In this document: one piece after another, positions 1-30,377 of the stretch | Position numbering within the stretch: position 1 is the stretch's first letter | Layout: each line of letters opens with the position of its first letter | Assembly: GCF_000014265.1 (NCBI RefSeq) | Contig: NC_008312.1 | Location: forward strand, 6,060,001-6,092,000 | DNA from: Trichodesmium erythraeum IMS101 | GTDB lineage: Bacteria; Cyanobacteriota; Cyanobacteriia; Cyanobacteriales; Microcoleaceae | Reading direction: 5' to 3' | DNA: 32,000 bases | Made by a program: the position numbers and the translations under genes | The notes under the pieces: model-generated | The model's input: the letters and a program-made list of their open reading frames with translations, nothing else | What the model was told of the DNA's origin: nothing | The model's database searches: none

Positions 1-3000
1 AATTTCGAGTTCCTCTAACTCCTGGGGATGGCTAATCAAATAATCATTTAACCACTGGCAACCACGTTTAGTTAAATCTTCTATTCGCCAACCTGTCCAC
101 AACTTCACTGTTTTGTCAGCACTTGCAGTTGCAATAGTCTTTCCATCGGGACTAAATGCTACAGCTTCGACCGAACTCTCATGGCCGGTGAGAGTCTGCA
201 ATAATTTCCCCTGACGGTTCCACAACTTCACTGTATTGTCACGACTGGCAGAAGCAATAGTCTCTCCATCGGGACTAAATGCTATACCATAGACCGAATT
301 CTTATGGCCGGTGAGAGTCTGCAATAATTTCCCCTGACGGTTCCACAACTTCACTGTATTGTCACGACTAGCAGTTGCTATAGTCTCTCCATCGGGACTA
401 AATGCTATACCATAGACCGAATTCTCATAGCCGGTGAGAGTCTGCAATAATTTCCCCTCACGGTTCCACAACTTCACTGTTGTCCCACTGGCAGAAGCGA
501 TAGTCTTTCCATCGGGACTAAATGCTATACCCCGGACCTCCTTCTCATGGCTGGTGAGAGTCTGCAATAAATTCCCCTCACGGTTCCACAACTTCACTGT
601 TTTGTCACGACTTGCAGAAGCAATAGTCTCTCCATCGGGACTAAATGCTATACCCAAGACCCAATTCTTATGGCCGGTGAGAGTCTGCAATAATTTCCCC
701 TGACGGTTCCACAACTTCACTGTTTTGTCATGACTGGCAGTTGCAATAGTCTCTCCATCGGGACTAAATGCTATACCATTGACCCCATTCTCATGGCCGG
801 TGAGAGTCTGCAATAATTTCCCCTGACCGTTCCACAACTTCACTGTTTTGTCACCACCAGCAGTTGCAATAGTCTCTCCATCGGGACTAAATGCTATACC
901 ATAGACCGAATTCTCATGGCCGCTGAGAGTCTGCAATAATTTCCCCTGACGGTTCCACAACTTCACTGTTTTGTCACCACCAGCAGTTGCAATAGTCTCT
1001 CCATCGGGACTAAATGCTATACCAAAGACCCCATTCTCATGGCCGGTGAGAGTCTGCAATAATTTCCCCTGACGGTTCCACAACTTCACTGTTTTGTCAC
1101 CACCAGCAGTTGCAATAGTCTCTCCATCGGGACTAAATGTTATACCCCAGACCGAATCCTTATGGCCGGTGAGAGTCTGCAATAATTTCCCCTGACGGTT
1201 CCACAACTTCACTGTATTGTCACCACTTGCAGAAGCAATAGTCTCTCCATCGGGACTAAATGCTATACCATAGACCCCCTTCTCATGGCCGGTGAGAGTC
1301 TGCAATAAATTCCCCTGACGGTTCCACAACTTCACTGTATTGTCACCACCAGCAGTTGCAATAGTCTCTCCATCGGGACTAAATGCTATACCATAGACCC
1401 AATTCTCATGGCCGGTGAGAGTCTGCAATAAATTCCCCTGACGGTTCCACAACTTCACTGTATTGTCACCACCAGCAGTTGCAATAGTCTCTCCATCGGG
1501 ACTAAATGCTATATCCCAGACCCCCTTCTCATGGCCGGTGAGAGTCTGCAATAATTTCCCCTCACGGTTCCACAACTTCACTGTTTTGTCATGACTGGCA
1601 GTTGCAATAGTCTCTCCATCGGGACTAAATGCTATATCCCAGACCCCCTTCTCATGGCCGGTGAGAGTCTGCAATAATTTCCCCTCACGGTTCCACAACT
1701 TCACTGTATTGTCAGCACTTGCAGAAGCAATAGTCTCTCCATCGGGACTAAATGCTATACCATAGACCTCATTCTCATGGCCCTGAATACGATTAATTTC
1801 TCTAAATTCATCATCTTTGTTGCGTTTGTAAACTGCGAAGCGGAGGGCATTTGTAATCTCACTAGCTTCATCAGTTGCTGGAAATTCACTATCAATTTGT
1901 TTTTGCCTTGCTTTCATAGCAGTCATCAACCCATCCCATCGCTGACCTGAAAGAGATAACTCTCTAGACTTATTTGCCTCAGTAATAGCATTTTTCTTTT
2001 TTTCTTGTCTAGATAGTTTCAGTTCCTCTATTATTTTATCTCCTTTCCTTTGCCGAATGAACCAAACCAAATAATCATGTACTAACTGATAACGAGCTGC
2101 TGGTTTTTTTGGCAGCAAAAATACTAACCCCGAACCCACAAAAATATTTAATGCTAACTCTAACTTCTCCGGATTTAATTGGCTTTCTTTCACCAACTCA
2201 GCCTTAGTTTTCAGAGGTCGAGTATTATTTTCATCCGTCAATAACCACAACACCACCCAAGCCAATTTTTCATTTTCTTCCCCACAGTCTTTCACTACTG
2301 ATTTTAAAGAGCTCTCTACCAATTCTACTTGAGGATTATCTCCTAATTCTTGATATTTTGCCAAAGTCGTAATTTGATCTTCCTGGAGTTGTGCCCCTAC
2401 TACTTGTAACTCAATAGGACGAATTTCTCCAGACTGCTTTCCTAAGTCTTCCAGTAACTTTTCTGTTAGATTTTTCTCTATTTTAAATAGAGAATTTTCT
2501 GTTAATCTTTCAATAACTAATTTGGCGTTATCCGGTGAAAAATTACCCAGAAAATAAAGTATATTTTTACTTAAAATATCATTATTAATTGCATCTAAAT
2601 TACCCAAACGATTAAGCTCTAATAAATAATGAATATAATCTTCTCTCAATGAAAAAACTATTTTCAAAAAAGGTATTTCCAAACATTTTTGGAGAAACTC
2701 AGCAAATAGTCGTTTATCTTTTGGTTCCATATTGGTCTTGGCAAAGAAAAATTCCTCAAATTGATCAAAAATGATTACCGTCAGTAGATTTAATTTATCA
2801 TTACCATTATTTTTCAACTGATCAAAAATTGCTTCAGGGGAATTTAGACTCTCTGAATTAACTTTTAAATTGGGAATTATTTGTAATTTTTCCGCTAAAA
2901 TTGTTCCTAATTCGGAAATCCAATTAACATAAACTCGTTGTAAAACTACTACTACATCACGAGTATTAATTGGTTTTGCCTCTAAAATCGGAACTAATCC

Positions 3001-4635
3001 AGCTTGTAAAATTGAACTCTTGCCTACCCCTGATTCCCCATAAATAACTATTAATTTATGGTCATTACGACTAATTCTTTCCAGCAATTTTTCCACATCA
3101 AGTTCTCGTCCAGATGCTGCTATTTCTTGTGTAAGTTTTTGTTGATTAATTCTCTGTTTTGACTGAGGTAAAGCCAAATTGATATTTTCTTTTATATCTC
3201 TCAAATAATTAGGACCAATAAAAGCTATCAATCCAAATTGTTGTTTTATTTTTTGTATTTCTTGCTTTAATTCAAAAGCCTTTAAATATTCTTTTTGTTG
3301 ATAATATATTTCTCGTAATTCTGTGATAATTTTGATGCAAAATTCATGATTATACTTAGGGTTTATCGTAGATTTAGCCAGTTCCAAAGTGGCTATAGCT
3401 GATTTGATTTTACCATTACCTTTTTCAGATTTTGCCAAAGAAAATAAATATCTACCTTGATGATAATAGCGTTCCCAATCTAAGGTTTTTTTATCCTCAT
3501 TTGAAGTAGGAGAAGATGCATAATCTAGAGTTTGGTTAAAAATTTTTATAGCAGTTTCAGAAAATTTTTTAGCTTTTTTATAATTGCTATTTGCCAATTC
3601 AAACTCAGCTAGAAAATTGTAAGCACGAGCTTCTCGAAATGGATAAGAATAGGCTTTATGTAATTCTATTGCCCTATTCCCCACAGTATTCAACTCATCC
3701 CAACGTTTCAAAGTCTGCAAAATTGTTCCCCAAGCGTTGATAAACTTAGCAACTAAATCTCGACGGTTAACTGTTTCAAAGCCTTCTATTACCTGTTGAA
3801 AATAAGAGCAAGCTTTCTCATAAGCCATATTTTTTTCTGCTTTATGTTCAAACCCGTAAGTCTGCCACCATAAACCCAGATAATAATAAGTGTGAGCTAC
3901 TCGCAACGGGTTATTAAGTTGTTGCCAAAGTTCCAGACTCCGTTCATAATGGTCTAGTGCTATTTTAGTAGAATTATCTGCCATCCTACCTAAAACAAAT
4001 TCCAGACTTGCCTCCAATTCTGACTCTAGGCTGATTCCTCTATTTGTCAATTCTTGCTGTGCGTCTAACAATTTTTGATAAGTAGACTCTACCAAACCCA
4101 GGTCAGCATCATCTAAAAATATTCCTTCCCCACTTTCTAATATTTTCTGATAAACACTCTCACTCGTCTGCTGAATAAAATCTCTTAATTCTGGAGTAGT
4201 AGTTTCAAATACAGTCAGACTTGTCCAACTTTCAAAATCAGGAATTAAGCGAATAAACTTCCGGGAAATCTCTTGATCTATCCACAAAAGTATTGGGAAT
4301 TGATAATTATTTTTAAACTCTTCACGCACTAACCCCATTGATACCAGTATTTGATCAATATTCCGGTTCGACTCCAAACCCCAAACCATTAACCCATCTG
4401 GTTGTTGCTCTCCTAAATGTTGGCCAATAGTAGTATAAAGTTTTTCAACTGACGCATCCACCTCCAATATTGCTAAATCTCCAGAAAAAGAAGTCTGGAG
4501 CTTTTCCATTAGCCGTCGACGCTGAGTTTGATAATTACAACTGGCTAAAAATAGTCGAAAGTCTCCTTGAGACATTTCCAGAGCAAATATTAGCTCAGAT
4601 AATAATTCGACTTCATTTTGATCAGGATCAATCAT
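1..4635 (-). CDS. STAND/NLR-like NTPase with WD40 array, large gene of cassette 1 (partial; the C-terminal tail lies beyond the left window edge)
   Basis: Absent from the ORF track because there is no stop codon inside the window. Hand translation of the reverse strand from the ATG at 4635-4633 gives [65 protein letters not shown]. The frame is unchanged at checkpoints 3060 ([20 protein letters not shown], Walker A), ~2800 ([14 protein letters not shown], Walker B), 1800 ([20 protein letters not shown]) and 120 ([28 protein letters not shown]). It is colinear with the 1599-aa product of 20614..25413. Confidence 0.85.
   Translation of the reverse strand, partial: [1545 protein letters not shown]
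97..1782 (-). repeat. Coding tandem array of 14 WD40 units of 123 bp (41 codons); one unit is 120 bp
   Basis: The string ccacaacttcactgt (antisense of TVKLW) recurs 14 times at about 97, 220, 343, 463, 583, 706, 829, 952, 1075, 1198, 1321, 1444, 1567 and 1690. All 14 units were translated by hand and fit the consensus [41 protein letters not shown]. Confidence 0.92.
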
Positions 4636-5948
4636 TTTTTCAATTCCACTGCATCTTTCAATATAGGATTAATATCAAACCAAGATCCTTCATCATCTCG
4701 GTATTCATAGACAAACATACTCCGAATCAACTTTTGATATCCATCATCACCTGTAACTTTTTTAGTTTGTGCTACTTGGCGCAACAACTCCCACTCTTGA
4801 TCATCTACTGCCAGAGTACGTTCATTGCGAAAATTTTGAATTACCTTGTTCAGGTTTTCACTGGATATCGGCAACCCTTTTTGCTTTTTAATAGCCTCAT
4901 TGAGTATCCGCAATATATTTCTCACATGACCCCCACTCATTTTACATAGATGATCTAAAGTTTCGGTACTGTCAAAAATTTCAGTTATTTTCTCTAGACG
5001 TTGTTGTTCTCCCAAATGGGGAAATGCTCTTGCTAAAACTAACTGCCTGAGTTTTGCCATTCCTTCTCCAAATTCCTTACCATCCCGCAACTGCATAGAA
5101 ACCATTGGCAAGACTTGGGGGTCGGTTTTGAAGCGTTGAGTTAATCTATTATAGTCATTGGAAAATCGCAGTGCTAGAGGTAGAGTATAAATTACATGAC
5201 AATGGAGACTTGCTAGTTGTTCGCCGCGATCAACAAATAGATATTCTGGTTGAGATCGCCCCCAAGGTTTTGGGGCACTATCAACTTTATCAAGGTTGTC
5301 AACTATAACTACTAATCCCTTTTTGTCGCGCTGCTTCAGCTTTTCGTGAGCTGGTTCGAGTAACTCTTGGTTTATTGTTTCAATAATTCCATTGCTACGA
5401 GGCCCGAGATAGTCTCTGAGTTTGCTGCGGAGTTGGGGACTAGCTTTGGCCTGAGCAGTTATTTTGGCAATTCCAAAAGAAAGCTCAACTCCAGGAGATA
5501 TTTCTATTTCTGTCTGCAATAGTCTCATAGCTCCCTCAATTTGACGTTTGAATCTTGTGGGTTCACCTAAATTGAGCTTCTCCCGGGTCTTCAAACTTTC
5601 GATGACTTGTCGAGCTATAGTTAGAAGAATATCACTGACGTCTATATCTCCCATTTCTAGGTCTTTGTCTGACTCAAAATAGACGACGTGAAAGCCTTCT
5701 GCTTCTAATAGTTGTTTGAGTAGCCAGAGTTCGGTAGATTTACCACAACCAATATGTCCGGTGAATAGTTGACAGGTAGGTTCGTCGGGAAACCACATAG
5801 CAATATTGTCTTTGAGGTCTTCTATTATTTTTCCCCCCCGTACTGAGGAGAAGTCAATATAGTATTTTTCCTCTATTTCCTGGTTATCTTTGAATAGGGC
5901 TTTACCAGGGTTTGTTGCCTGAAAGAAAGCTTTGACATTTACGCTCAT
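4632..5948 (-). CDS. Stand-alone P-loop NTPase (minimal STAND/ORC-Cdc6-like ATPase), small gene of cassette 1
   Basis: 438-aa ORF in the track. It has Walker A FTGHIGCGKSTEL and Walker B GLVVIVDNLDKVD. It is roughly three-quarters identical to the 19121..20560 product over the stretches I compared. Its TGA overlaps the ATG of the downstream large gene (ATGA at 4632-4635). The exact family was not determined. Confidence 0.8.
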   Translation of the reverse strand: MSVNVKAFFQATNPGKALFKDNQEIEEKYYIDFSSVRGGKIIEDLKDNIAMWFPDEPTCQLFTGHIGCGKSTELWLLKQLLEAEGFHVVYFESDKDLEMGDIDVSDILLTIARQVIESLKTREKLNLGEPTRFKRQIEGAMRLLQTEIEISPGVELSFGIAKITAQAKASPQLRSKLRDYLGPRSNGIIETINQELLEPAHEKLKQRDKKGLVVIVDNLDKVDSAPKPWGRSQPEYLFVDRGEQLASLHCHVIYTLPLALRFSNDYNRLTQRFKTDPQVLPMVSMQLRDGKEFGEGMAKLRQLVLARAFPHLGEQQRLEKITEIFDSTETLDHLCKMSGGHVRNILRILNEAIKKQKGLPISSENLNKVIQNFRNERTLAVDDQEWELLRQVAQTKKVTGDDGYQKLIRSMFVYEYRDDEGSWFDINPILKDAVELKK

Positions 5949-16047: not shown

Positions 16048-18795
16048 TTGATGATGAAAATTTATAAGTGGCATCCTATACTTGCTTTATTTCTATGGTT
16101 AAGTATTATAATTAGTCCGGAATTATTGGACCGCAAAAAAATCACACCAGCACTTGCGGAAACAACTTTACAAGATATTAAAAATCATTTTGCTCAAGGT
16201 TGTATTGATAGTTTATTAGACAAAAAAATAATATTGGGTGACTACAAAAATAAAACTTTTCGTGCTAATACACCTGTAACTAGAGCTGAATTTGCTGCAA
16301 TGATTACTCAAGCTTTTCCAGATACAAAAATTGTGCGAAATCCGATAAATTTTGTAGATATTCCCCAAGACTATTGGGGTTATGATGCGATTAAAAAATC
16401 TTATGAAATGGGTTTTTTATCGGCATATATTGGCAAAACTTTTAACCCGACTTTCAAGATTAAACGCTGGCAAGTTTTGACAGCTTTAAGTAGGGGATTA
16501 AATTATCAAGCAAGTTCATCTTCAACACAGAAGTTAAATAAAATTTTTGATGATGCAGCAGAAATTCCTGAAGAGGTAAAAAAGTCTATTGCAGCAGCAA
16601 CAGAAAAAGGTATTGTTGTTAATTATCCAAATGTTAGGCTGCTTAATCCTAATGAAAATGCTACCCGCTCAGATGTAGCTACTTTTCTGTGTCAAGCTAT
16701 TGTCAATAATCAAAAAAATAGTAATGAAGTAATTGTTCAAGTTCCTTCAGAATATATTGCAAGTTTTGATAAAAATACTCAATTAAAAACTAGAGATACT
16801 TTACCTAAAAATACTATAGAAACAATAAAAAATAGAGAAAATTCTAATTTAAAAACAACTGGGGAAACTTCTTTAGAAAATACAAATATTCCTGGAATAG
16901 TAGAAAGGTTTGATGATGGCAATTTACAAGCTGAAATTATTTACAGACAAGCTAATAATACAGATTTAGTGAGTGATTTATATCTGAAAATTATCAGAGG
17001 TGGAAAAACTATTTTAAATCAACCAATACCAGTCGAATCTTTAGCCAGTGCATCTGATAGTACAATGGCATTATTAGCAGGTAGATTTGTGAAAGTACAA
17101 TTATTAGATCTCGATGGGGACAAAGAATCGGAGGTATTAGTAGATTTATTCACAATAAATAATAGTAATGCTCCATTTATAGGTGGTACTTATTCTTTTA
17201 TTTATCGTTATGAACCGAAAGAAAATCAATATACTATGCTGCGCCATTACTGGGGAAATATTAATTATCGGGTTACAGATTTAGATAATGATAATATTCC
17301 AGAATTTAAAAGTTTTGATAGTAGATTTGCTAATGTGTTTTCTAATTTAAATGATTCATTTTTTCCCGTCCGCATTTTCCAGTACTATCAAGGAGAAATA
17401 TTGGATGTAACTAAGAAATATCCAGTCCAAATAAACAGCGATGCTTCAGAAATGTGGCTAGAATTTTACAGGCGTTTAAATAAAAAACAAAATATAAAAG
17501 GAGTATTGGCTGCTTACCTGGCAAATAAATATATGTTAGGTGAAAAAGAAGAGGGCTGGAAATCAATAGAAAGTGCATATCAAGGTAGCGATCGCTCAAC
17601 TTATTTTGCCAATTTGCGTAATTTTTTGACTGAGAAAGGTTATGACACTAATCAACAAATTCAACCCCAAACTATGCTGGAAAATTTTAATCCGGAAAGT
17701 CAAGATAATGTTTCTTCTTTTACCAATAAAACTTCACCCAAAGTAACAACAAACAATACAGAAAATACGGAAATAAAAATAAAACGACCACCTCAAAGTT
17801 CATACTCAAGAACAATACCAGCAATTCCTAAAACTTTATCACCGACTGAAAATTCTGTAAATTCAGAAACCTTAAGACAGGCAGATATTACTAATAATAT
17901 TGTGCTTGCACCTAAATTAGTTACTTCTATATCTAATAAGCAACCAGATTCTATTTTATCTTTAACAATTAGTTTTAATGGCAAAATATTAGCTAGTAGC
18001 AGCGGTAAAAACATTCAGTTATGGAACTTAGAAACTGCTAAACTACTAGATACTTTATCAAGTCATACCACTAATGTGCGCTCGGTAGCAATTAGTCCAG
18101 ATGGTAAAACTTTAGCAAGTGGAAGTGAGGATGGTACAGTAAAATTGTGGGATATTTCTACAGGAAAAGTGTTGACCAGCTTTGACCATTCTGGTTTGAT
18201 AACTGCTGTGGGTTTTACTGCTGATGGCAGAGCAGTGATAGGATGCAGCTCTGATAGCGGGATGAAATTGTGGGATATTGAGACAGGGGAACTACTACAC
18301 AGGATGAATGGTACTCAACCTATTGCTTTTGGTGTTGATGGTCTGCAAATGGCGGCCAGTGGCGGACCGAGATATATTCGTCTTTGGAATGTCGCCGAGG
18401 GGCAACTGTTGAAAAATCTGCCTATACCTAGTAGAAATAATAATCAAGGGATACAGGCGATCGCTTTTAGTCAGGATGGACAAACTCTTGCTCATGCAAT
18501 GCGGGGAGAAAGTCAGGTTTTAGTCTGGAATGTGGAAACCTGGGAAGTGCGTCACACTCTCAAAGAACATTCTCAGGCAATTCAGGCGATCGCTATTAGT
18601 CCGGATGGTAAAATTCTTGCGAGTAGCGGCGAGGATGGTAAAATTTATCTGTGGGATATGGCTAGTGGAAAATTATTGAGGAGTATTAAAGGTTACGGTG
18701 CAATTGTTTTTAGTCCTGATAGTCAGCAGCTTGTCAGTGTTACAGAGGATAATATGATTCAGCTTTGGCAAATTTATGGGTCGGCGAGGGAGTAA
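16048..18795 (+). CDS. Exported SLH-domain protein with a C-terminal 7-blade WD40 propeller
   Basis: 915-aa ORF. The N-terminus is signal-peptide-like (ILALFLWLSIIIS...PALA/ET). Three SLH-like segments follow (..TFRANTPVTRAEFAAMITQAF; FVDIPQDYWGYDAIKKSYEMGFLSAY; ..NENATRSDVATFLCQAI). Next come a region of unknown function and an N/T/S/P-rich linker. Seven diverged WD40 repeats close the protein (e.g. SHTTNVRSVAISPDGKTLASGSEDGTVKLWD). Confidence 0.85.
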   Translation: MMMKIYKWHPILALFLWLSIIISPELLDRKKITPALAETTLQDIKNHFAQGCIDSLLDKKIILGDYKNKTFRANTPVTRAEFAAMITQAFPDTKIVRNPINFVDIPQDYWGYDAIKKSYEMGFLSAYIGKTFNPTFKIKRWQVLTALSRGLNYQASSSSTQKLNKIFDDAAEIPEEVKKSIAAATEKGIVVNYPNVRLLNPNENATRSDVATFLCQAIVNNQKNSNEVIVQVPSEYIASFDKNTQLKTRDTLPKNTIETIKNRENSNLKTTGETSLENTNIPGIVERFDDGNLQAEIIYRQANNTDLVSDLYLKIIRGGKTILNQPIPVESLASASDSTMALLAGRFVKVQLLDLDGDKESEVLVDLFTINNSNAPFIGGTYSFIYRYEPKENQYTMLRHYWGNINYRVTDLDNDNIPEFKSFDSRFANVFSNLNDSFFPVRIFQYYQGEILDVTKKYPVQINSDASEMWLEFYRRLNKKQNIKGVLAAYLANKYMLGEKEEGWKSIESAYQGSDRSTYFANLRNFLTEKGYDTNQQIQPQTMLENFNPESQDNVSSFTNKTSPKVTTNNTENTEIKIKRPPQSSYSRTIPAIPKTLSPTENSVNSETLRQADITNNIVLAPKLVTSISNKQPDSILSLTISFNGKILASSSGKNIQLWNLETAKLLDTLSSHTTNVRSVAISPDGKTLASGSEDGTVKLWDISTGKVLTSFDHSGLITAVGFTADGRAVIGCSSDSGMKLWDIETGELLHRMNGTQPIAFGVDGLQMAASGGPRYIRLWNVAEGQLLKNLPIPSRNNNQGIQAIAFSQDGQTLAHAMRGESQVLVWNVETWEVRHTLKEHSQAIQAIAISPDGKILASSGEDGKIYLWDMASGKLLRSIKGYGAIVFSPDSQQLVSVTEDNMIQLWQIYGSARE

Positions 18796-19120: not shown

Positions 19121-20560
19121 ATGACCAAAAATATTATAAATACTATGACCATAGATGCTGATACCTTTTTTCAGGCAATAAACCCTAGGGTTCCTCTGTT
19201 TATAGATAATGCGGAAATTGACAAAAAATACTATATTGACTTTTCTCCGGTGCGTGGGCAACAGGTGATTAAGGATTTGAAGTCTACTATTACTCGTTGG
19301 TCTAAAGGTAAACCTACCTGTCAATTATTTACTGGACATATTGGTTGTGGTAAGTCTACAGAACTCTGGCGACTGAAGCAACAGTTGGAAACAGCAGGTT
19401 ATCATGTTGTTTATTTTGAGTCTGAAAAAAACCTGGAAATGGTAGATGTGGATGTTAGTGATATTCTTTTGACTATTGCCCAAAAGGTGAGTGAAAGTTT
19501 GGAGAAGTTAGAAAGATTAAATTTGGAAGAGCCAAAAAGGCTAAAAGGTCTACTTCAGAGTATTGTTAAATTATTACAGACAGAAATTGAATTTTCGGCA
19601 GAAACTACTGTTCCTGGTGTGGGTAAGTTGTCAGCTAGCAGTGATGGTTCATTTTCGGCAGATTTAGGAATAGTTGAAGTGAAGGCTGATGAGGAAGGGT
19701 TAGAGTTTGTGGCTTCAGGTATTGGTAAAATTTCTGCACAGGCAAAGGGTAGCCCGGAACTCCGCACTAAACTGAGGGAATATCTGGGACCTCGCACCCC
19801 TGGAATTATTGAGATGATCAACAAAGAGTTGCTTGAACCTGCTGATCAGAAGTTGAAAGAGTATGGTAAAAAGGGGTTGGTTGTGATCGCTGATAGTCTT
19901 GATAAGGTTGATAGTTCCCCAAAACCTTGGGGTAGAAATCAGCAGGAATATTTGTTTGTAGACCGAGGAGAGCAACTAACAAGCCTTCAGTGTCATCTGA
20001 TTTATACTTTACCTATAGCACTGCGTTTTTCTAATGACTACGGTACTTTAACTCAAAGGTTTGATGCTCCTAAGATATTGCCGATGGTAGCTACACAGTT
20101 ACAGGATGGCAGTGAATGTATTGCTGGAATGGAGTTAATGCGACAGTTGGTTTTGGCTAGGGCTTTTCCAGAGTTAACACCACAGGAAAGGTTGGCAAGG
20201 GTGACGGAAGTGTTTGATAGTCAGGAAACTTTAGACTATTTATGTTGGGTTAGTGGGGGTCATGTCAGGAATATGTTCCGAATGGTACTTGATGCTCTCA
20301 AGGAGGAGGATGACTTACCTATTTCTCGTGGGAGTGTTGACAATGTAGTGAGAAATTATCGCAATGAACAACTTTTGGCTATAGATGATCACGAGTGGGA
20401 GTTATTACGGCAGGTAGTTCAAACAAAAAAAGTAACGGGTGATGACGGATACCAAATTTTAATCCGGAGCATGTTTGTTTATGAGTATCAATATGACCAG
20501 AGTTCTTGGTTTAATATTAATCCTCTTTTGAAAGATGCACCAGAATTGAAGATAAGTTAA
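19121..20560 (+). CDS. Stand-alone P-loop NTPase, small gene of cassette 2 (paralog of 4632..5948)
   Basis: 479-aa ORF with Walker A FTGHIGCGKSTEL and Walker B GLVVIADSLDKVD. The true start may instead be the ATG at 19145, because MTIDADTFFQAINP aligns with MSVNVKAFFQATNP of copy 1. It carries a ~35-aa insertion relative to copy 1. Confidence 0.82.
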   Translation: MTKNIINTMTIDADTFFQAINPRVPLFIDNAEIDKKYYIDFSPVRGQQVIKDLKSTITRWSKGKPTCQLFTGHIGCGKSTELWRLKQQLETAGYHVVYFESEKNLEMVDVDVSDILLTIAQKVSESLEKLERLNLEEPKRLKGLLQSIVKLLQTEIEFSAETTVPGVGKLSASSDGSFSADLGIVEVKADEEGLEFVASGIGKISAQAKGSPELRTKLREYLGPRTPGIIEMINKELLEPADQKLKEYGKKGLVVIADSLDKVDSSPKPWGRNQQEYLFVDRGEQLTSLQCHLIYTLPIALRFSNDYGTLTQRFDAPKILPMVATQLQDGSECIAGMELMRQLVLARAFPELTPQERLARVTEVFDSQETLDYLCWVSGGHVRNMFRMVLDALKEEDDLPISRGSVDNVVRNYRNEQLLAIDDHEWELLRQVVQTKKVTGDDGYQILIRSMFVYEYQYDQSSWFNINPLLKDAPELKIS

Positions 20561-20613
20561 TAGATAGGGAGGTTGCATCAGGTATTATTAAGATAGTAGG
20601 AAGTTAAAAAATT

Positions 20614-23600
20614 ATGTCTAATAGTGGTAATATAGAAAAGTTGCTTCGAGGCTTGAAGATGTCTAAAGGAAGATTCTCGCCTTTTTTGGCTCGTTATAGT
20701 TATGTGAGTCAGCGCGATCGCTTAATTGAAAATTTCCGAGCATCTTTTCCTGGTGTATTGAAAGTATTGGCCTTGGATGAGTCTGTGACCCAAATTTATA
20801 CAACTGTCAGAAAATATTTAGAAGGCAAAGAGCTGGATGTTTTGATGGTCTGTGGTTGGGAGTCGTTGAGGAATATTAATGAATTATTAGTGGCAATGGG
20901 ATATGTGCGGGAAGAGTTTAGAAAACATTGCCCTCTACCAATAGTTTTTTGGGTAGATGGGAACGTTTCCCGGAAATTTATTCGGTTAATTCCAGATTTT
21001 TACAATTGGGTGAGTCTGACTGTATTTGAATCTGCTAATGATGAATTAATTGATTTTATTCAGCAAACGAGTGAGAATGTTTATCAGAAGGTTTTGGAAA
21101 GTGGGGTAGGAATATTTTTAGATTATACTGACCTGGGTTTGCCAGAGTCTAGTTATCAAGATTTGTTAGAGGCTCGGCAAGAGTTGGCCAATAGAGGAAT
21201 TACTTTAGAAGCAGAACTAGAGGCGAGTCTGGAATTTGTTTTAGGTAGGTTGACAGATGATTTTGAGGAAACAGCCCGAGATCATTATCAACGGAGTCTT
21301 GAACTTTGGCAACAACTTAAGAACCCGTTGCGAGTTGCTCATACTTATTATTATTTGGGTTTGTGGTGGCAGAGTTATGGGGTGACACATCGAACAGAAA
21401 AAAAGATAGCTGACAAGAATGCTGGGGATTATTTTCAACAGTCAGTAGAAGGTTTTGAGGCAATTAAGCGTCTAGACTTAGTTGCTAAATTTATCAATGG
21501 TTGGGGAGAAGTTTTGCAGGTTTTGGAGAGTTGGGAGCAGTTGGAAACTGTTGCGAATAGAGCAATAGAAGTTTTAGATACCTCCCAGCCTTCTTTTAGA
21601 CTAGCCCGTGCTTATGATTTTCTTGCCGAATGTGAACTAGCTAAAGGTAACTATAAACAAGCCAAACAACTTGCTGAAACTGCTATAGAAATTTTCAACA
21701 ATACTCAAAGCGCTGCATCTGTTCTTACCTCAGAAAAAGATCAAAAAACTTTAGATCGGGAAAAGTATTATCATCGGGGTAGATATTTATTTTCTTTGGC
21801 AAAAGCTGAAAAAGGTAGTGGTAAAATTAAATCAGCTATAGATACTTTGGAAAAAGCTAAAAAGAGGACGAAGCCTGAATATAACCCGGATTTTTACATC
21901 AATATTATTGAGAAATTACGAGAAATATATTACCAAGAAAAAGAATATCTTAAAGCTTTTAAATTAAAGCAAGAACGACAAAGAATAGAACAACTATTTG
22001 GGTTTATAGCTTTTGTTGGGGCGAAGACTTTGGGCTCTATAAAATCTAATATTCATCTCGCTTTACCTTATTTAAAACCAAACAATAATCAACAAAAAAT
22101 AACTCAGGAAATAGCAGCATCTGGACGAGAATTTGATGTCAAAATATTACTGGAAAGGTTGAGTCAACCTCAACATAAGCTTATAGTTCTTTATGGAGAA
22201 TCAGGAGTTGGTAAAAGTTCGACTTTGCAGGCTGGATTAATTCCTGTTTTAGAGAAAAAATCAATTGATACTCGTGATGTCGTGGTGGTTTTACAGCGAG
22301 TTTATGTTAATTGGATTTGCCAACTAGGAAAAGGTTTAGCTAAACAACTGGAAACAACTAAAAATTTAGCTGTTAATTCAGAGAAACTAACCTCAATTGA
22401 AGGAATTTTTGCTCAGTTAAAAAAGAATGAACAATTAAATCTAATGACGGTTATTATTTTTGATCAATTTGAGGAATTTTTCTTTGTTAATAGGGAACTT
22501 CAGGATAGACGAGAATTTGCTCAGTTTCTCCAAAATTGTTTAGAAATACCTTTTGTGACAATTATTTTATCATTGAGAAAAGATTATATTCATTATTTGT
22601 TAGATTTTAGTCGTTGGGCTAATTTAGAAGTAATTAATGAGAATATTTTAGACAAAAATATCCTCTATTACTTAGGGAATTTAAGACCTTCACAGGCAAA
22701 AATAGTCATTGAAAAATTAACAGCAAATTCTCAGTTTAAAATAGACTCAGCACTGACAGAAAAATTGGTAGAAAACTTAGCACAGGAGTTGGGAGAAGTT
22801 CGTCCTATTGAGTTACAAGTAGTGGGGGCACAACTCCAGGAAGATCAGATTACGACTTTGGCAAAATATCAAGAATTAGGAAATATTCCTCAAGTAGAAT
22901 TGGTAGAGAGATCTTTAAAGTCAGTGGTGAAAGACTGTGGAGAAGAAAATGAAAAATTTGCCTGGGTGGTGTTGTGGTTATTAACGGATGAAAATAATAC
23001 TCGACCTCTGAAAACTCAAGCTGAGTTGGTGAAAGAAAGTGACTTTAATCCGGAGAAGTTAGAGTTAGTATTAAATATTTTTGTAGGTTCGGGATTAGTA
23101 TTTTTATTGCCAGAAAAACCAGCAGCTCGTTATCAGTTAGTACATGATTATTTAGTTTGGTTTATTCGACAAAGAAAAGGAAATAAAATACAAGAGGAGC
23201 TCAAACAGGAACGGGAAAAACGGCAGCAGTTGCAGACGTGGTTAGTTAGGGGTTCTGTTGCTGTTTCCTTGGTGATGGCGATATTGGTAGGGGCGATATA
23301 TATGTCTGTAAGGGAGGAACATAAGGAAAAAATTATTTCTCAAGCTAATGAGTCTAGAGCGTTATCTATTTCTGGTCAGCGATGGGATGGGTTGATGACT
23401 GCGATGAATGTTAGGCAAAAACAAATTGATGCTAAAATTAAACCAATAGGTAAAGCTAGCAAGATTACAAATGCCCTCCGAGTCGCAGTTTACAGCTACG
23501 ATAAAGATGATGAGTTTCGAGAAATTAATCGTACTCAGGCCCATGAGAATTGGGTAAATGGTATAGCATTTAGTCCCGATGAAGAAACTATTGCTTCTGG

Positions 23601-25413
23601 AAGTTATGACAACACAATGAAGTTGTGGAACCATCAGGGAAATTTATTGCAGACTCTAAAAGGTCATGAGAATTGGGTAAATGGTATGGCTTTTAGTCCC
23701 GATGGAGGAACTGTAAAGTTGTGGAACCACCAGGGGAAATTATTGCAGACTCTAAAAGGTCATGAGAATTCGGTCTATGGTATAGCATTTAGTTTTGATG
23801 GAGAAACTATTGCAACTGCTGGTGCTGACAAAACAGTGAAGTTGTGGAACCCTCAGGGAAAATTATTGCAGACTATCACCGGCCATGATAACTGGGTCTA
23901 TGGTATAGCATTTAGTCCTGATGGAGAGACTATTGCTTCTGCTAGCTGGAAAACAGTGAAGTTGTGGAACCGTCAGGGGAAATTATTGCAGACTCTCACC
24001 GGCCATGAGAATTGGGTCTATGGTGTAGCATTTAGTCCTGATGGAAAGACTATTGCAACTGCTGGTGGTGACAAAACAGTGAAGTTGTGGAACCGTCAGG
24101 GGAAATTATTGCAGACTATCATCGGTCATGAGAATTGGGTCTATGGTGTAGCATTTAGTCCTGATGGAAAGACTATTGCAACTGCCAGTGGTGACAAAAC
24201 AGTGAAGTTGTGGAACCGTCAGGGGAAATTATTGCAGACTCTAAAGGATCATGATAATTGGGTATATGGTGTAGCATTTAGTCTTGATGGAAAGACTGTT
24301 GCAACTGCCAGTGGTGACAAAACAGTGAAGTTGTGGAACCGTCAGGGGAAATTATTGCAGACTCTAAAAGGTCATGATAACTGGGTCTATGGTGTAGCAT
24401 TTAGTCCCGATAAAGAGACTATTGCAACTGCCAGTGGTGACAAAACAGTGAAGTTGTGGAACCGTCAGGGGAAATTATTGCAGACTCTCACCGGCCATGA
24501 GAATTCGGTTTATGGTGTAGCGTTTAGTCCTGATGGAAAGACTATTGCAACTGCCAGTGGTGATCAAACAGTGAAGCTGTGGACAAATTGGCGGATAGAA
24601 GATTTAACTAAGCATGGTTGCGAGCGGTTAAATAATCATTTAGTTGCCCATCCCCAGAAGTTAGAGGAACTCAGAATTTGCCAAACTGACGAACGCAAGA
24701 AATTAGCTGCTAGTAGTTGGGTAATAGAGGGAGAAAAGTTGGCAAGGGAAGGGAAGGTTAAGGAGGCAGTTGCCACGTTTAAGAAAGCAGCAAAATGGAA
24801 TTCTGATATCAACATCAACTCAAATTTTCTAGTTTGGGCAAAATTATTAGCTGAGGCAGAAACACTGATGGAGGAAGGAACGGAATTAGCAAAAGAAGAA
24901 AAAATAGAGGCTGCAGTGGAAAAATACCAACGAGCAAAAGAACTTGATCAAGTGGCATTTACCCCTACTTGGCAAAATGTTGACCCAGAAGCTAAAGCTA
25001 AATATCAGGCAGTGGATGCTTTGTTGAATAAAGGGGATGAACTTCTGAGGAAGAGAAAGGTTAAAGAAGCGATCGCCTCCTACGAAAAAGCAGAAAGGAT
25101 CGACTCCACCCAAATTTCTGCTTTTAACTGGAATAAACTTTGTCGGGATGGTAGTCTTGATCAAAAAGCTGCTGATGTTATGTTTGCCTGTGAAAAAGCA
25201 GTTGCCATGAGCCCGCAAGATGGCAAAATTATTGATAGTCGCGGACTTGCTAGGGCATTAACAGGGAATATTGAGGGAGCGATCGCTGATTTTCAAGTCT
25301 ATGTAGAATGGACGAGAAATGAGGAGAAAAAAGCACAACGACAACAATGGATAAAAGCACTTCAGGCAGGGGAAAACCCATTTACTGATAAGCTGTTGGA
25401 AGAGTTAAGGTAG
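20614..25413 (+). CDS. STAND/NLR-like NTPase with TM helix, WD40 array and TPR-like tail; large gene of cassette 2
   Basis: 1599-aa ORF. The N-terminal module has no P-loop ([28 protein letters not shown]). It is followed by TPR-like helices ([17 protein letters not shown]). The NTPase has Walker A [22 protein letters not shown] and Walker B [14 protein letters not shown] hydrophobic helix [24 protein letters not shown] lies at 23239-23310. Nine WD40 units and C-terminal TPR-like repeats follow. An AGGAAG Shine-Dalgarno-like site sits ~10 nt upstream of the ATG. Confidence 0.9.
   Translation: [1599 protein letters not shown]
23539..24582 (+). repeat. Coding tandem array of 9 WD40 units (123-bp period); two units carry in-frame deletions
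   Basis: Unit starts are at 23539, 23662, 23758, 23881, 24001, 24124, 24247, 24370 and 24493. The spacings are 123, 96, 123, 120, 123, 123, 123 and 123 nt. The consensus is [41 protein letters not shown]. Confidence 0.92.
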
Positions 25414-25668: not shown

Positions 25669-26754
25669 CTACTGCCTACTCTGTTTTAATAATAAACTTC
25701 CTCCTGAAGGAAATTCTTCATTTTTTTGATCAAAGCGCCAATGTTGTTGATAATTATTAAAAAAGTTTTGCCCTAAAATTCCATCAACTTCTAATAACTC
25801 TAATACCGGGGAAGATAAAATTACTGTTTCTAATTTTCTCAACTCATAATTTCCCATTTTCACCTGAGCTAAGGAAGCTAATTCTGCCATTTCAATGCCA
25901 CAAAAACCCTGGACTCGAACTGCCTGTCTTTCGGCAGCAGTAATTTTTAACTGACTAGCTAATTTCTGAGAAATAAAAATACTTTCTGCTCCCGTATCTA
26001 ACATAAAAATAAACGGACCGTTGCCATTAATTTCTACCTCGGCTAACATGACTCCTAATTTAGATTTAAGTGGGATAGCATCTTTAATATTTTTAGCGGG
26101 TATGATCGTGGGAGATAGTAACCGTAACTCTTGGGTTTTAGGGTTTATTTCTACATCAAAATTACTTAAAATATCCATCCCCAAAACTCCTGATAATTCT
26201 CCTGGCATTATAGTAGTAGTAAACTCTAAACCAGCTAATTTTTCGACTTTAACATCATCAATTTTTAACACAGGTAAACGATGCAAATTAGCTTTCATTT
26301 CGGGGCACTCATCTCCAGCTACTGCATAAGTTAAAAGTTCTTTTGGTATAGGTTCTCCTTTTAATCCTAATTCTTTGACTATTTTTGTAGAAATCATTGT
26401 AGTAGAAGCTCCTGTATCTAATAAAAAATCACCGGATTTTTTCCCTAAAGTAGCTGTTAAAGTAAATGCTGTTCCACTGTCTAAAAATTTGAGAGGAATA
26501 GTGGTAATTCCAGTTACTTTCGGCCGTGGTAAGTTGAGACCTTCTAGTTGTACAATAGCTCCAGTTGATATTTGTGGAGTTGTGGCAATATAATTTCTTT
26601 CAGGACTTCTAACACTTGTAGTTTTTTGGGGAGCGATCGCTATATTTTGTTTCCCAATAACAGGTCTGAATAAAGCAAAAGTTGGGGAAATAATTATAGA
26701 GGTAATAGCTGCTATAATAATAGTTTTGACGGTCTTTTTTGTACTGTTTCTCAT
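25669..26754 (-). CDS. Retropepsin-like aspartic protease with two tandem DTGA domains and an N-terminal signal/anchor
   Basis: 361-aa ORF. The N-terminal stretch KTIIIAAITSIIISPTFALF is hydrophobic. There are two catalytic-type motifs, FLLDTGASTTMIS (D113) and FMLDTGAESIFIS (D253). The GILGMD/GILGQNF-type flap-end motifs (GVLGMDILSNF, GILGQNFFNNY) are also duplicated. Confidence 0.8.
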   Translation of the reverse strand: MRNSTKKTVKTIIIAAITSIIISPTFALFRPVIGKQNIAIAPQKTTSVRSPERNYIATTPQISTGAIVQLEGLNLPRPKVTGITTIPLKFLDSGTAFTLTATLGKKSGDFLLDTGASTTMISTKIVKELGLKGEPIPKELLTYAVAGDECPEMKANLHRLPVLKIDDVKVEKLAGLEFTTTIMPGELSGVLGMDILSNFDVEINPKTQELRLLSPTIIPAKNIKDAIPLKSKLGVMLAEVEINGNGPFIFMLDTGAESIFISQKLASQLKITAAERQAVRVQGFCGIEMAELASLAQVKMGNYELRKLETVILSSPVLELLEVDGILGQNFFNNYQQHWRFDQKNEEFPSGGSLLLKQSRQ

Positions 26755-27347: not shown

Positions 27348-30300
27348 CTAAAGTAAGTTGAGGCTGAGACGGTAGTCCGTGCGACTGGCACCTTGGGGAT
27401 ATACCCGAACATAGTAAGTACCTGGGTCTAATGTAGTCACAATACTTTCTCGTTCGATACCGCTATTTTTAGACTGGTTGATCACTTCTTCCTCGCTACC
27501 ATATAAACCAATATTAGCATCTTGTAATAAATTGTCAAGGAATAGTACAAAAGCACTTTCTTTATCTGTTTGGAAGGTATAAAAGTCGTTGGTATTGCGA
27601 TATATTCCCCTGCTAAAACCGACTTCGTCAGTTCTCACCACTTCCCCTGTGAATTGCCCTAAGTTGATGGCAGTCTGGAAACTTTCCCCTGGCTGTTCCC
27701 CACCTCGATCATTATCTTTAATAGTACCAATGGCGCCCTTGTCTCCCAACCTAGCATTTTTAGGTTTCCTGAGATTAACTGTAAAGTTTTCGCTGCTTTC
27801 CTCCGAGAGATCCCCAAGAATAGGAACTGTTACTGTTTTTTTCTTCTGGTTCGGTTGAAAAATAAGTTTGCCTTGAGTTTTTTGGTAGTCCGAACCTTCT
27901 TTCGCAGTTCCGTCAGCAGTAGCATAACTTACCTCAACTCTTTTTTGAGTTTTAGCATTGAGGGTGACATCAAATGTTAGTTGTTTTTTGCCATCATCAC
28001 CCTCAGTTATTTCCCGATCTTTGATGAATAGTTTAGGCAAGTCGTTATTGCGGATGGTGCCAATGCCTCGTCTGTCCTTAAGTTGGGCATTTCGGGGTTT
28101 GCTGAGGTTGAGTTGGAAAGTTTCGTCATTTTCTATTTTATTATCCCCAAAAATAGGAACAGTAATGGTTTTACGGGTTTGACCAGGTCTGAAGGTGAGG
28201 GTACCTTTGGTGGGTTTGTAGTCTTGGTTTGCTTTCGCAGTTTGATTGCGAGTACCATAGTCTACCTGAACTGTTTCTATTGGTTTGGCATCCAGAGTGA
28301 CAGTGAATTTGGCGTTTTTGCGTCCTCGGTTGCCTTCGACTATTTTGGTGTCGCTAATGGATATTTGGGGCGGGTTTTTTTTGTCGTCGTTGGTAATAGT
28401 CCCAAGACCGACTTTATCCTTGAGTCTGGCATTTTTGGGTTTGCTGAGGTTGAGGTTGAAAGTTTCGTTAGGTTCTACTTTGTTATCTCCCAGGATGGGA
28501 ACGGTAATATTTTTTTGAGTTTCCCCAGGCTTGAAAGTGAGGGTGCCCTTAGTGGGTTTGTAGTCTTCGTTCCCTTTGGCGGTTTTATTCGCGGTGGCGT
28601 AGTTGACTTTTACTGTTTGGTCGCTTTCATTGTCGAGGGTAACAGTAAATTTGGCATTTTTGCGTCCCTTGTCGCCTTCAGTTATTTTGGTGTCAGAGAT
28701 AGCAATGTTGGGAAATATTGCCATTTTGGTGGTATTTAGTAAAATGGATATGGTATCAGAAGCGCCATTAGTTGTCGCAATATCTAGCTTACCATCAGCA
28801 TTAAAATCTTCTACTACAACATCTTCAGGTGCATCCCCCACCTGAAAATTAATTGCACTACCAAAGCTTCCTTTTCCTTGTCCTGGTAATATTGAGATAT
28901 TATTTGACTCCCTATTAACTGTAACAATATCCAACTTGCGATCGCCATTCAAATCTCCAATAGCGATATCCTCAGGACTATTTCCCACAGGGAAACTATT
29001 TGGAAACCCAAAACGTCCGTCTCCGAGACCGAACAGGACAGAAACCTTGTCTGAGTCTTCCATGTTTATCACAATGTCCTGCTTCTTGTCTCCGTTCACG
29101 TCTTTCGCGACAATACCGCTCGGCGTATCTCCTCCCGCGATAAAGCTAGTGAGGAAGTCAAAGCCACCATCTCTATTTCCCAACAGCACCGAAACGTTAT
29201 TAGAATTACCATTTGCTGTCACAATATCCAGCTTACCATCACCGTTAAAATCTTTGACGACTAAATTTGCAGGAAGATCTGCTCCTACCTGATAGCTAAT
29301 GCTTTCAGCAAAACTACCATTGCCGCTTCCTAACAATACTGAAACATTATCGGAACCACTATTCCCGGTTACAATATCTAGCTTACGGTCTTGGTTGACA
29401 TCAGCTACCGCTAGTTGAGATGGGCCATCACCTACAGGAAATTCGCTAGGACTACTAAACCGACCTTTCCCATCTCCTAACAAAACTGCTACAGTATCGT
29501 CATCTTGGTTTGTTGTTGCGATATCTGGGTTGCGGTCTCTGTTAAAATCTCCCACTGCCGCATAAACAGGCTTACCTCCCACTTCATGTGTAGTTGCAGT
29601 TAATGCCCCTCCCTTGCCATCACCAAACAACACTGATACTGTTGTAGACCCAACGTTTGCCGCCACAATATCCTTAAAACCATCCTTATCAAAATCTGCT
29701 ACCGCCATCCCAAAAGGTTGATCACCCGTTGGGAAGTTGCTGATCTTGAAGCTCAACTCTGAACTTGCCTCCACCTCAACCAACCCATTTAAAATTTTTA
29801 CCATATCATCCTCGCCGCGCAAACCCTCAACTTCCTCCACACTCAACACATCACCGCGAACCAACGCCGCAAACCACTCTCCCTCATCTCCAGGAGTATC
29901 TATTGTATTCAACTTTGAGTCAATGTAATGTCCTAACTCCTCTGCCAGTACATCCGTCAGATGTGGAAACTGCCTCGTTTCACTTCCAATAACAGAATTC
30001 TCGTTAATCAAACTATCCGTCAAATACACCATACCAGTCAGAGAGTCAAAACCCCCCGCCGCACCGTTCATCAGCTCTACTGGCACAATATTTATCTGTG
30101 GCAAGTTCTCACCCTTTGCCAAAGTATCAACAATAGTTTTTCCCAGATCAACTTTCCCCGACTCCCCAAAGACATTTAACATATCCGCCTCAAAAGTCTC
30201 AGAAGCAGCAAAGTTCGTTAAATTTTCCTGAAATTGAGCTAACCCCTCTTCAATTATCTCCACCGCTGGCAATACTTCCACAGATACTTGCCCCAGAAAA

Positions 30301-30377
30301 GTTATAGGAGGAATATTGTTGATGTGTTTGAGCTCCAAGTCGGACATTATATCAAGGAATTCACTATCGTCTGTCAT
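27348..30377 (-). CDS. Large FG-GAP/VCBS propeller + 3 Calx-beta + C-terminal PPC (pre-peptidase C-terminal) domain protein
   Basis: 1009-aa ORF. Seven Ca-binding-type FG-GAP motifs are present: DFDKDGFKDIV, DFNRDRNPDIA, DVNQDRKLDIV, DFNGDGKLDIV, DVNGDKKQDIV, DLNGDRKLDIV and DFNADGKLDIA. Three Calx-beta units follow (ISDTKITEGDKGRKNAKFTVTLD...YKPTKGTLTFKPGETQKNITVPILGDNKVEPNETF and two more). The C-terminus (DFYTFQ...GTYYVRVYP) is PPC-like. No signal peptide is evident. Confidence 0.82.
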   Translation of the reverse strand: MTDDSEFLDIMSDLELKHINNIPPITFLGQVSVEVLPAVEIIEEGLAQFQENLTNFAASETFEADMLNVFGESGKVDLGKTIVDTLAKGENLPQINIVPVELMNGAAGGFDSLTGMVYLTDSLINENSVIGSETRQFPHLTDVLAEELGHYIDSKLNTIDTPGDEGEWFAALVRGDVLSVEEVEGLRGEDDMVKILNGLVEVEASSELSFKISNFPTGDQPFGMAVADFDKDGFKDIVAANVGSTTVSVLFGDGKGGALTATTHEVGGKPVYAAVGDFNRDRNPDIATTNQDDDTVAVLLGDGKGRFSSPSEFPVGDGPSQLAVADVNQDRKLDIVTGNSGSDNVSVLLGSGNGSFAESISYQVGADLPANLVVKDFNGDGKLDIVTANGNSNNVSVLLGNRDGGFDFLTSFIAGGDTPSGIVAKDVNGDKKQDIVINMEDSDKVSVLFGLGDGRFGFPNSFPVGNSPEDIAIGDLNGDRKLDIVTVNRESNNISILPGQGKGSFGSAINFQVGDAPEDVVVEDFNADGKLDIATTNGASDTISILLNTTKMAIFPNIAISDTKITEGDKGRKNAKFTVTLDNESDQTVKVNYATANKTAKGNEDYKPTKGTLTFKPGETQKNITVPILGDNKVEPNETFNLNLSKPKNARLKDKVGLGTITNDDKKNPPQISISDTKIVEGNRGRKNAKFTVTLDAKPIETVQVDYGTRNQTAKANQDYKPTKGTLTFRPGQTRKTITVPIFGDNKIENDETFQLNLSKPRNAQLKDRRGIGTIRNNDLPKLFIKDREITEGDDGKKQLTFDVTLNAKTQKRVEVSYATADGTAKEGSDYQKTQGKLIFQPNQKKKTVTVPILGDLSEESSENFTVNLRKPKNARLGDKGAIGTIKDNDRGGEQPGESFQTAINLGQFTGEVVRTDEVGFSRGIYRNTNDFYTFQTDKESAFVLFLDNLLQDANIGLYGSEEEVINQSKNSGIERESIVTTLDPGTYYVRVYPQGASRTDYRLSLNLL

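Follow-up and report, generated by a model that had tools for sequence, protein, structure and literature searches.

Results

Gene A and its WD40 array

At one end of a 32,000-nucleotide stretch of the Trichodesmium erythraeum IMS101 genome (NCBI RefSeq assembly GCF_000014265.1, contig NC_008312.1, positions 6,060,001 to 6,092,000; the whole stretch is referred to as the window, and coordinates are counted from its first base) lies a gene, here termed gene A, that encodes an nSTAND1-WD40 protein with 14 closely similar WD40 units. Our results suggest that these units are homogenised as a scaffold and diversified at a few positions of a predicted recognition surface. Gene A is read from the minus strand (1..4635, ATG at 4635-4633) and encodes at least 1545 amino acids; one frame is open from 4668 to base 1, and the C-terminus lies beyond the window edge. 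By analogy with the paralogous gene B of the same window, about 255 further residues, forming a helical C-terminal domain, are expected beyond base 1. From the N-terminus to the C-terminus the product comprises an alpha/beta domain, a TPR region, an nSTAND1 NTPase and the 14 WD40 units. Directly upstream, on the same strand, lies a gene for a partner P-loop ATPase of 438 amino acids (4632..5948), whose stop codon overlaps the ATG of gene A as ATGA, so that the two genes are translationally coupled. The gene family is widespread in filamentous cyanobacteria, and 14 units is its commonest architecture.

The WD40 array occupies 64..1782 on the minus strand, as delimited by Tandem Repeats Finder (TRF), the unit table, the Pfam WD40 matches and the match to the solved structure 2YMU. 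TRF reports a period of 123 at 96-1782 (13.7 copies, 91% matches, no indels, score 2681), and Pfam WD40 (PF00400) recognises 14 stretches in the array with E = 5.6e-197. The array reads as 14 in-frame units of 41 codons, with unit 1 at 1782-1660 and unit 14 at 186-64; for k = 1 to 10, unit k starts at 1782-123(k-1) and its codon p begins 3(p-1) bases further down. An earlier note on this DNA, made from the sequence alone, had described 14 near-identical units of 123 bp, or 41 codons. The period stands, while unit 11 (433..552, minus strand) has only 40 codons, because a 3-nt deletion takes out the conserved tetrad residue Asp24; in the same unit Gly1 is replaced by Ser. Near-identity likewise holds for units 1-13, which share 85-97% of their nucleotides, and fails for unit 14 (64..186, minus strand), a diverged terminal blade with 72% identity to the other units overall. 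Its codons 1-30 (186-97) are repeat-like and 86% identical to the other units, and its codons 31-41 form a non-repeat tail, WTGWRIEDLTKR. Over codons 1-30 it is as close to the terminal unit of the paralogous array, B9 (87%), as to its own array (86%), which weakly suggests that the terminal unit escapes homogenisation. The tetrad D24, H2, S/T20 and W30 is complete in 12 of the 14 units and broken in unit 11, by the deletion of Asp24, and in unit 12, where His2 is replaced by Tyr.

Variation within the unit is unevenly distributed. Per-position entropy is highest at position 7 (2.36 bits), followed by positions 5 (1.86), 23 (1.78) and 4 (1.52), and we refer to these four codons (p = 4, 5, 7 and 23) as the hot-spot codons. 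They are the four that the earlier note had named, and its reading of the residues proved accurate on translation, both for all 14 combinations at positions 4, 5 and 7 and for the pattern [AHGR]-D-[NK] around the tetrad Asp. Its remark that most codons are invariant also agrees with our count, 24 of the 41 codons being invariant among units 1-13 and six further codons differing in one unit only. That variation is confined to the four codons was an overstatement: they hold 41% of the pairwise amino-acid differences, and polymorphism of 0.75-1.3 bits, in most cases between two alleles, is present at positions 25, 33, 35, 8, 20, 22 and 3 as well. The median pairwise amino-acid identity between blades is 0.83, above the internal blade identity of at least 0.7 by which Hu 2017 defines WD40 proteins as Highly-Repetitive (HR), and the gene A array belongs to that class.

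Fold of the array and position of the variable sites

Among solved structures the nearest is 2YMU, the Npun_R6612 WRAP domain, which aligns over all 14 blades (E = 2e-275) and is also the best Foldseek match of an AlphaFold2 (AF2) model of the array, at 73% identity. The next Foldseek matches are 7-bladed WRAP-T designs (7BID, TM 0.81), followed by Apaf-1. 2YMU has been published as two 7-bladed propellers (PMC6805158), and its homology from end to end supports the same arrangement for the 14 blades of gene A, as the earlier note had proposed.

Each unit of the AF2 model has four strands, a (6-12), b (16-22), c (26-31) and d (36-41). In this register positions 1-5 form the d-a loop, positions 23-25 the b-c turn and positions 32-35 the bottom c-d loop, where the biallelic positions 33 and 35 fall. 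In the WD40 topology the d-a loop and the b-c turn are loops of the top face. The hot-spot rule of Wu et al., which was derived from 36 crystal structures and 29 complexes, places top-face hot spots at R1 of the motif (V/L/I)-R1-R2-(V/L/I), at R1-2, and at D-1, the residue preceding the tetrad Asp (PMC3419727). With V6-x7-G8-I9 and D24 of the gene A unit, the rule makes position 7 R1, position 5 R1-2 and position 23 D-1, with position 4 as R1-3. The rule, the strand register of the model and the homology to 2YMU together support a predicted location of the variable positions on the top-face recognition surface. The placement of these sites on the top face in the earlier note was therefore sound, positions 5, 7 and 23 corresponding to R1-2, R1 and D-1 and the loops following from the register of the model.

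Evidence for selection at the hot-spot codons

Among units 1-13 of gene A the minimal number of events is 27 non-synonymous and 6 synonymous. Of the non-synonymous events 13 fall in the four hot-spot codons (binomial P = 6e-7), and all 6 synonymous events fall within codons 18-23 (P = 1e-5), with no synonymous difference of any kind elsewhere in these units. As the gene A array alone holds too few events, the test was pooled over the family. In family arrays with an internal identity of at least 0.70, which include arrays from Nostoc, Calothrix, Richelia, Dapis, Okeania and others, positions 5, 7, 23 and 4 are among the most variable, with one weak exception, the second array at locus L002, where only position 5 is in the top four. 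For the pooled test we used 10 independent arrays with an internal identity of at least 0.79, the gene A array included.

In the pooled arrays codons 4, 5, 7 and 23 hold 162 non-synonymous and 11 synonymous events, or 1.69 against 0.45 per site, a ratio (omega) of 3.7. The other 37 codons hold 142 non-synonymous and 148 synonymous events, or 0.17 against 0.60 per site, and their omega is 0.29. For the four codons the departure from neutrality is significant (P = 3e-7) and persists when the gene A array is left out (omega 3.8, P = 7e-7); the contrast between the two codon sets over the 10 arrays has a Fisher odds ratio of 15 (P = 1e-25). Taken codon by codon, pooled omega is highest at position 7 (8.4), followed by position 5 (5.6), position 23 (4.1) and position 4 (1.8), and position 25, with 0.65, has no excess. 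Because the synonymous rates of the two codon sets are similar and the non-synonymous rates differ tenfold, the pattern points to selection and not to local hypermutation. These counts support diversifying selection at the four codons of the family's high-identity arrays, as judged from the sequences of the units.

Probable homogenisation and exchange between arrays

Within the 123-nt unit all four gametes are present in 52 of 66 informative site pairs, which indicates that the units are mosaics. The arrays of gene A (paralog A) and gene B (paralog B) are also more alike than their surroundings, with a mean identity of 87% between their repeat units (maximum 94%), whereas the non-repeat parts share 78.5% at the DNA level, and two synonymous haplotypes at codons 19-22 are common to both arrays. 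Comparison of the gene A array with other 14-blade arrays gives no positional orthology, and even the nearest orthologs have equal diagonal and off-diagonal identities (0.84 each). Arrays across genera nonetheless keep 14 units, at internal identities that range from 0.40 to 0.86.

A further indication comes from a Trichodesmium metagenome assembly (L082, ENA ERZ23497920), in which a segment of gene A (2095..2355, minus strand) is replaced by a tract of about 250 nt identical to paralog B. The tract has 0/261 mismatches to B and 21/261 to A, and its flanks are identical to gene A, giving an A-B-A mosaic. Gene conversion between the cassettes is the expected origin of this mosaic, and an assembly chimera is possible. 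Taken together, the mosaic units, the shared haplotypes, the A-B-A tract and the missing positional orthology support homogenisation of the repeats, including exchange with paralog B, although repeated re-amplification may be an alternative to the exchange of units. A look-up also gave seven further places similar to the A-B-A tract.

An exact-protein look-up of the partner ATPase gave 22 contigs, all of which break at or inside the array. The first 3356 nt, units 1-4 included, are identical in an independent assembly. The order of units is 1-2-3-4-4-4'-6 in L081 and 1-5... in L082. We set these orders aside as evidence of real polymorphism; they are possible artefacts of the de Bruijn graph, because units 3 and 4 have identical 3' halves. 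The array's unique 3' and 5' junctions had no match in two metagenome scans.

The paralogous cassette

The paralogous cassette lies about 20 kb from the gene A array on the plus strand (19121..25413) and consists of partner ATPase B (19121-20560) and gene B (Tery_3934, 20614-25413), with a WD40 array of 9 units at 23539-24615 (plus strand). The hot spots of gene B are almost uniform, mostly N-W-x-Y, and synonymous differences occur all along its units. Unit B2 (23662-23757) is without 9 residues, with the loss of strand b, and unit B4 (23881-24000) is without the tetrad Asp through a 3-nt deletion at the same position as that of unit 11 in gene A. The gene B array may be decaying, or fixed in function.

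Orthologs of gene B in other Trichodesmium assemblies (P0121-P0133) have 1599, 1558, 1517 and about 1476 amino acids, corresponding in exact steps of 41 residues to 9, 8, 7 and about 6 WD40 units. This series is either a real polymorphism of unit number or a collapse of repeats in short-read assemblies. The orthologs of IMS101 and MAG_R01 differ at one hot spot only. An exact look-up of gene B among encoding contigs gave no match, and a cluster look-up did give a match. In Trichodesmium sp. MAG_R02 (L001, 209-14965) three cassettes of partner ATPase and STAND gene stand in tandem within 15 kb, which indicates a multi-copy family whose copy number varies in Trichodesmium.

N-terminal domains, NTPase and partner ATPase

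The N-terminal alpha/beta domain of gene A (residues 1-175; 4111..4635, minus strand) has five strands in the AF2 model, at residues 28-32, 54-58, 81-85, 115-119 and 138-142; it is confidently modelled and kept across the family. Its profile has no significant match to Pfam or to PDB sequences. From its place in the protein, which is that usual for STAND effectors and adaptors, it is a candidate effector or adaptor. A TPR-like helical solenoid follows (residues ~183-466; 3238..4089, minus strand), with a TPR_12 match at residues 300-367 and support from AF2. The AF2 model of residues 1-500, built with 36 homologs, has a pLDDT of 87 and contains the alpha/beta domain followed by the solenoid; in Foldseek this 500-residue model matches the TPR domains of LGN, KLC and Rap (E = 1e-8), matches which are dominated by the TPR part.

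The NTPase module (residues 509-857; 2065..3111, minus strand) carries the Walker A motif GESGVGKSS and matches nSTAND1 (PF20703) with E = 3.8e-30 and 106 bits (cutoff 27.1). Neither NACHT nor HET is matched by gene A, and its NB-ARC match (E = 0.036) is below threshold. The nSTAND1 clade has been predicted to act in conflict systems (PMC8195603).

The partner ATPase matches AAA_16 and NPHP3_N weakly; neither a TIR nor a caspase domain is present in the Pfam scan, and there is no sequence relative in PDB. The partners at related loci (434-485 amino acids) are likewise without TIR or caspase. In nearly all of 80 related loci a homolog of the partner lies directly upstream of the STAND-WD40 gene (E = 1e-140 to 1e-215), and on this ground we regard the pair as a conserved two-gene operon. 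PADLOC-DB v2 gave only marginal matches (E 8e-4 or weaker, ~15-17 bits), none of which amounts to a defence-system model, and searches of PADLOC, NCBIfam and Pfam identified neither the N-terminal 950 residues nor the partners as part of a defence system or as an effector.

The linker between NTPase and propellers

In most members of the family a hydrophobic, transmembrane-like 19-mer lies between nSTAND1 and the WD40 units. It is present in 56 of the 72 family members in the fetched loci (score at least 1.8) and, among 90 homologs retrieved by protein search, in 60; in gene B it is SVAVSLVMAILVGAIYMSV (23239-23310, plus strand; Kyte-Doolittle 2.25). The linker of gene A (1783..2064, minus strand) is without such a segment. 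Its maximum 19-residue Kyte-Doolittle value of 0.09 is the lowest of the 72 members, and it is about 33 residues shorter, as are the linkers of the nearest relatives P0002, P0014, P0016 and P0017. The relatives without the segment form a sub-lineage with full-length proteins. Judging by the hydrophobicity of this segment, many family members may be single-pass membrane proteins, with the propellers on the side opposite to the NTPase. A transmembrane-like segment at the junction of NTPase and WD40 units is not described in the literature compared here.

Other features of the window

Cassette B is adjoined by a gene for a third WD40 protein (16048-18795) of 915 amino acids, with N-terminal SLH domains and about seven divergent blades, which has no relationship to the highly repetitive arrays; the cassette's other flank holds a gene resembling a tandem aspartyl protease (25669-26754). 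At 30463-30834 a non-coding unit of 126 bp stands in three tandem copies (94% matches), just upstream of the start of an FG-GAP/Calx-beta protein gene (27348-30377, minus strand). An Rfam scan of the window, the 126-bp repeats included, gave no match.

Discussion

The explanation that we consider probable, though well short of certain, is that gene A encodes an NLR-like STAND sensor with homogenised blades whose top-face contacts are under diversifying selection. The array would serve to sense the ligand of a cytoplasmic NLR-like NTPase from the nSTAND1 clade. The gene of the NTPase and that of the small P-loop ATPase form a conserved two-gene operon. The blades would be kept near-identical by unequal crossing-over or gene conversion inside the array, together with exchange with the paralogous array, and diversifying selection would keep replacing the residues R1-2, R1 and D-1 (positions 5, 7 and 23) and, more weakly, that of position 4. 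Reshuffling of the units would then place new combinations of contact residues on an unchanged scaffold, following the logic of the fungal HET-D/E/NWD receptors. We infer that binding of a ligand to the top face of the propellers would free the NTPase for nucleotide-dependent oligomerisation, and that the oligomer may activate an output via the N-terminal alpha/beta-TPR module, the partner ATPase or both, an output that would serve defence or non-self recognition.

Several points weigh against this explanation. The gene A array alone has 13 non-synonymous and 1 synonymous events in the four codons, and omega > 1 is not significant (P = 0.22), so that the description of the array in the earlier note as a diversifying recognition surface is upheld by the pooled contrast of 3.7 against 0.29 and not by this array by itself. 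Events were counted by a simple minimum-spanning-tree method. The top-face mapping comes from the sequence rule, the strand register and homology. Paralog B, in the same window, is without diversification at the hot spots, and the broken DHSW tetrads of units 11 and 12 could be incipient decay. Lastly, L081 and L082 are short-read contigs that end inside the repeat and whose differences in unit order may be artefacts; the A-B-A tract and the variants of gene B in unit number are subject to the same caveat.

The closest known system is WRAP, a cyanobacterial STAND ATPase with 14 near-identical blades, encoded in an operon with a second ATPase, in which the blades differ only by non-synonymous changes (PMC9218822, PMC6805158). 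Gene A resembles it in carrying 14 near-identical 41-residue blades C-terminal of a STAND ATPase in a filamentous cyanobacterium, with 73% identity from end to end, in being coupled to the gene of a second ATPase, and in that nearly all blade-to-blade DNA differences are non-synonymous. In addition, 6 of the 10 WRAP differences are changes from Trp to Arg at a single site, which is position 7 (R1) of gene A. The two systems differ in that the gene A array is far more diversified, with its 27 non-synonymous and 6 synonymous events (the latter in codons 18-23), that TIR or caspase is reported for the operon partner of WRAP and the partner of gene A has neither, and that about 950 residues precede the gene A array, whereas a WRAP blade is found already at residues 670-710. 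They differ also in interpretation, as the published reading of WRAP is recent independent amplification, and not selection with homogenisation.

Extended to gene A, this reading would be an unlikely account of the array. It corresponds to the 'amplification-differentiation' cycle proposed for WRAP propellers, in which a single blade was very recently amplified and the copies then drifted, neutrally or under relaxed selection, at the least constrained surface sites, and involves neither diversifying selection nor ongoing homogenisation. The confinement of synonymous differences to codons 18-23, with none outside them, as in Npun_R6612 (PMC9218822), is in agreement with it, as is the lack of significance of omega > 1 in the gene A array alone, and independent amplification would also explain the missing positional orthology. 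Drift predicts an omega of about 1, however, and the pooled hot-spot omega of 3.7 is significantly above this at a normal synonymous rate. The four-gamete violations in 52 of 66 site pairs and the haplotypes common to the paralog are unexpected after a single clean amplification, and the presence of exactly 14 units across genera, at internal identities from 0.40 to 0.86, also argues against it.

Somewhat less probable again is that selection was directional, differentiating the blades for one fixed asymmetric ligand, in which case the hot spots would be stable within a species and the propellers a housekeeping scaffold. Positive selection among paralogous blades would give omega > 1 under this scheme too, and the identity of units 1-4 in the second assembly, L081, and the single hot-spot difference between the gene B orthologs of IMS101 and MAG_R01 fit it. 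But these four positions are diversified in each lineage and the residues differ, the family is multi-copy with variable copy number, as the three cassettes within 15 kb in L001 illustrate, and the NTPase clade is predicted to act in conflict systems (PMC8195603).

That the gene is decaying or mis-assembled, and its pattern without functional meaning, is very improbable. The deleted Asp24 of unit 11 and the Tyr at position 2 of unit 12 could be taken in this sense, as could the absence of the transmembrane-like linker of most relatives, and decayed WRAP-like propellers are common (PMC9218822). Nevertheless, the open frame extends over 1545 codons and is preserved by the deletion in unit 11, the first 3356 nt with units 1-4 are identical in an independent assembly, the relatives without the transmembrane-like segment form a sub-lineage of full-length proteins, and the codons outside the hot spots are strongly conserved. 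Targeted hypermutation of the hot-spot codons in place of selection, by a diversity-generating retroelement (DGR) or otherwise, is scarcely credible, even though other nSTAND1 proteins are DGR targets (PMC10907252), and the array was rejected as a DGR target: the window is without a reverse transcriptase, a template repeat or an orphan unit, there is no adenine bias (8/33 variants from A), synonymous change is no more frequent in and beside the hot-spot codons than elsewhere (0.45 against 0.60 per site), and no variation, third positions included, is seen in codons 6 and 24 between hot-spot codons.

The combination of homogenisation and selection at contact residues is best known from the fungal HET-E, HET-D and NWD proteins, in which the selected codon pairs 7/9 and 25/27 flank conserved residues of two top-face elements, the d-a loop and the b-c turn (Paoletti, Saupe & Clave 2007; PMC1805685). 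These pairs are homologous to positions 5/7 and 23/25 of the gene A unit, with an offset of 2, and the HET-E-like pattern suggested by the earlier note is recovered at the level of the codon. As in the fungal proteins, the WD40 units are highly conserved, appear to evolve in concert and to be exchanged across paralogous loci, and positive selection is detected at top-face codons, with a pooled omega of 3.7 that is not matched by significance in the gene A array alone. In contrast to them, gene A is bacterial, its NTPase is nSTAND1 and not NACHT, it is without a HET domain, and repeat-induced point mutation (RIP) is not possible. Furthermore, position 25 has no excess in the bacterial arrays (omega 0.65), and position 4 does have one. 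Gene A is not a member of the NWD family but, by analogy, appears to work like one.

In its overall plan, with an N-terminal module, a STAND NTPase and a C-terminal repeat sensor, gene A shares the tripartite organisation of Apaf-1, Avs and bNACHT. With Apaf-1, which is among the top structural matches of its array, it also shares a double WD40 propeller. It differs from Avs and bNACHT in that it matches no PADLOC defence model and has an obligate small-ATPase partner.

A wider reading, which we offer tentatively and to which we give only a modest chance of being right, joins the transmembrane-like segment to the proposed sensor. The members that bear the segment would be single-pass receptor-NLRs, with the double propeller in the periplasm and the NTPase and its partner in the cytoplasm, and gene A would be a soluble derivative. 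The family as a whole would then constitute a repeat-shuffling, positively selected surveillance repertoire of filamentous cyanobacteria, directed against phage or used in kin or non-self recognition. The periplasm is continuous along cyanobacterial filaments. If this reading is true, the family would be a bacterial counterpart of fungal HET-E, with a variant for extracytoplasmic sensing.

WRAP, the HR WD40 arrays and the conjecture of diversification have already been published, and gene A joins that class; what is new here is the codon-level test across a bacterial family and the evidence of exchange between paralogs. Hu et al. 2017 described the HR WD40 proteins, half of which are bacterial, as diverse at predicted hot spots and conserved at most sites, and Dyrka et al. 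2020 conjectured that the repeats of bacterial NLRs may be under fungal-like rapid diversification. Neither study reports a codon-level test of selection at the hot spots, and the pooled omega supplies one. According to the conjecture, the conserved repeats of NLRs are a device for the rapid diversification of a binding surface, by homogenisation combined with positive selection at the contacts. Gene A and the nine related arrays lend codon-level support to this conjecture, which had so far been stated for bacteria only as an idea, and they illustrate that 'recently amplified' and 'concerted evolution under selection' can be separated by synonymous and non-synonymous rates. For Trichodesmium, the array is a good marker for strain typing with long reads and, on the strength of its sequence features, a candidate sensor of phage or non-self in a bloom-forming diazotroph that is prone to cell death.

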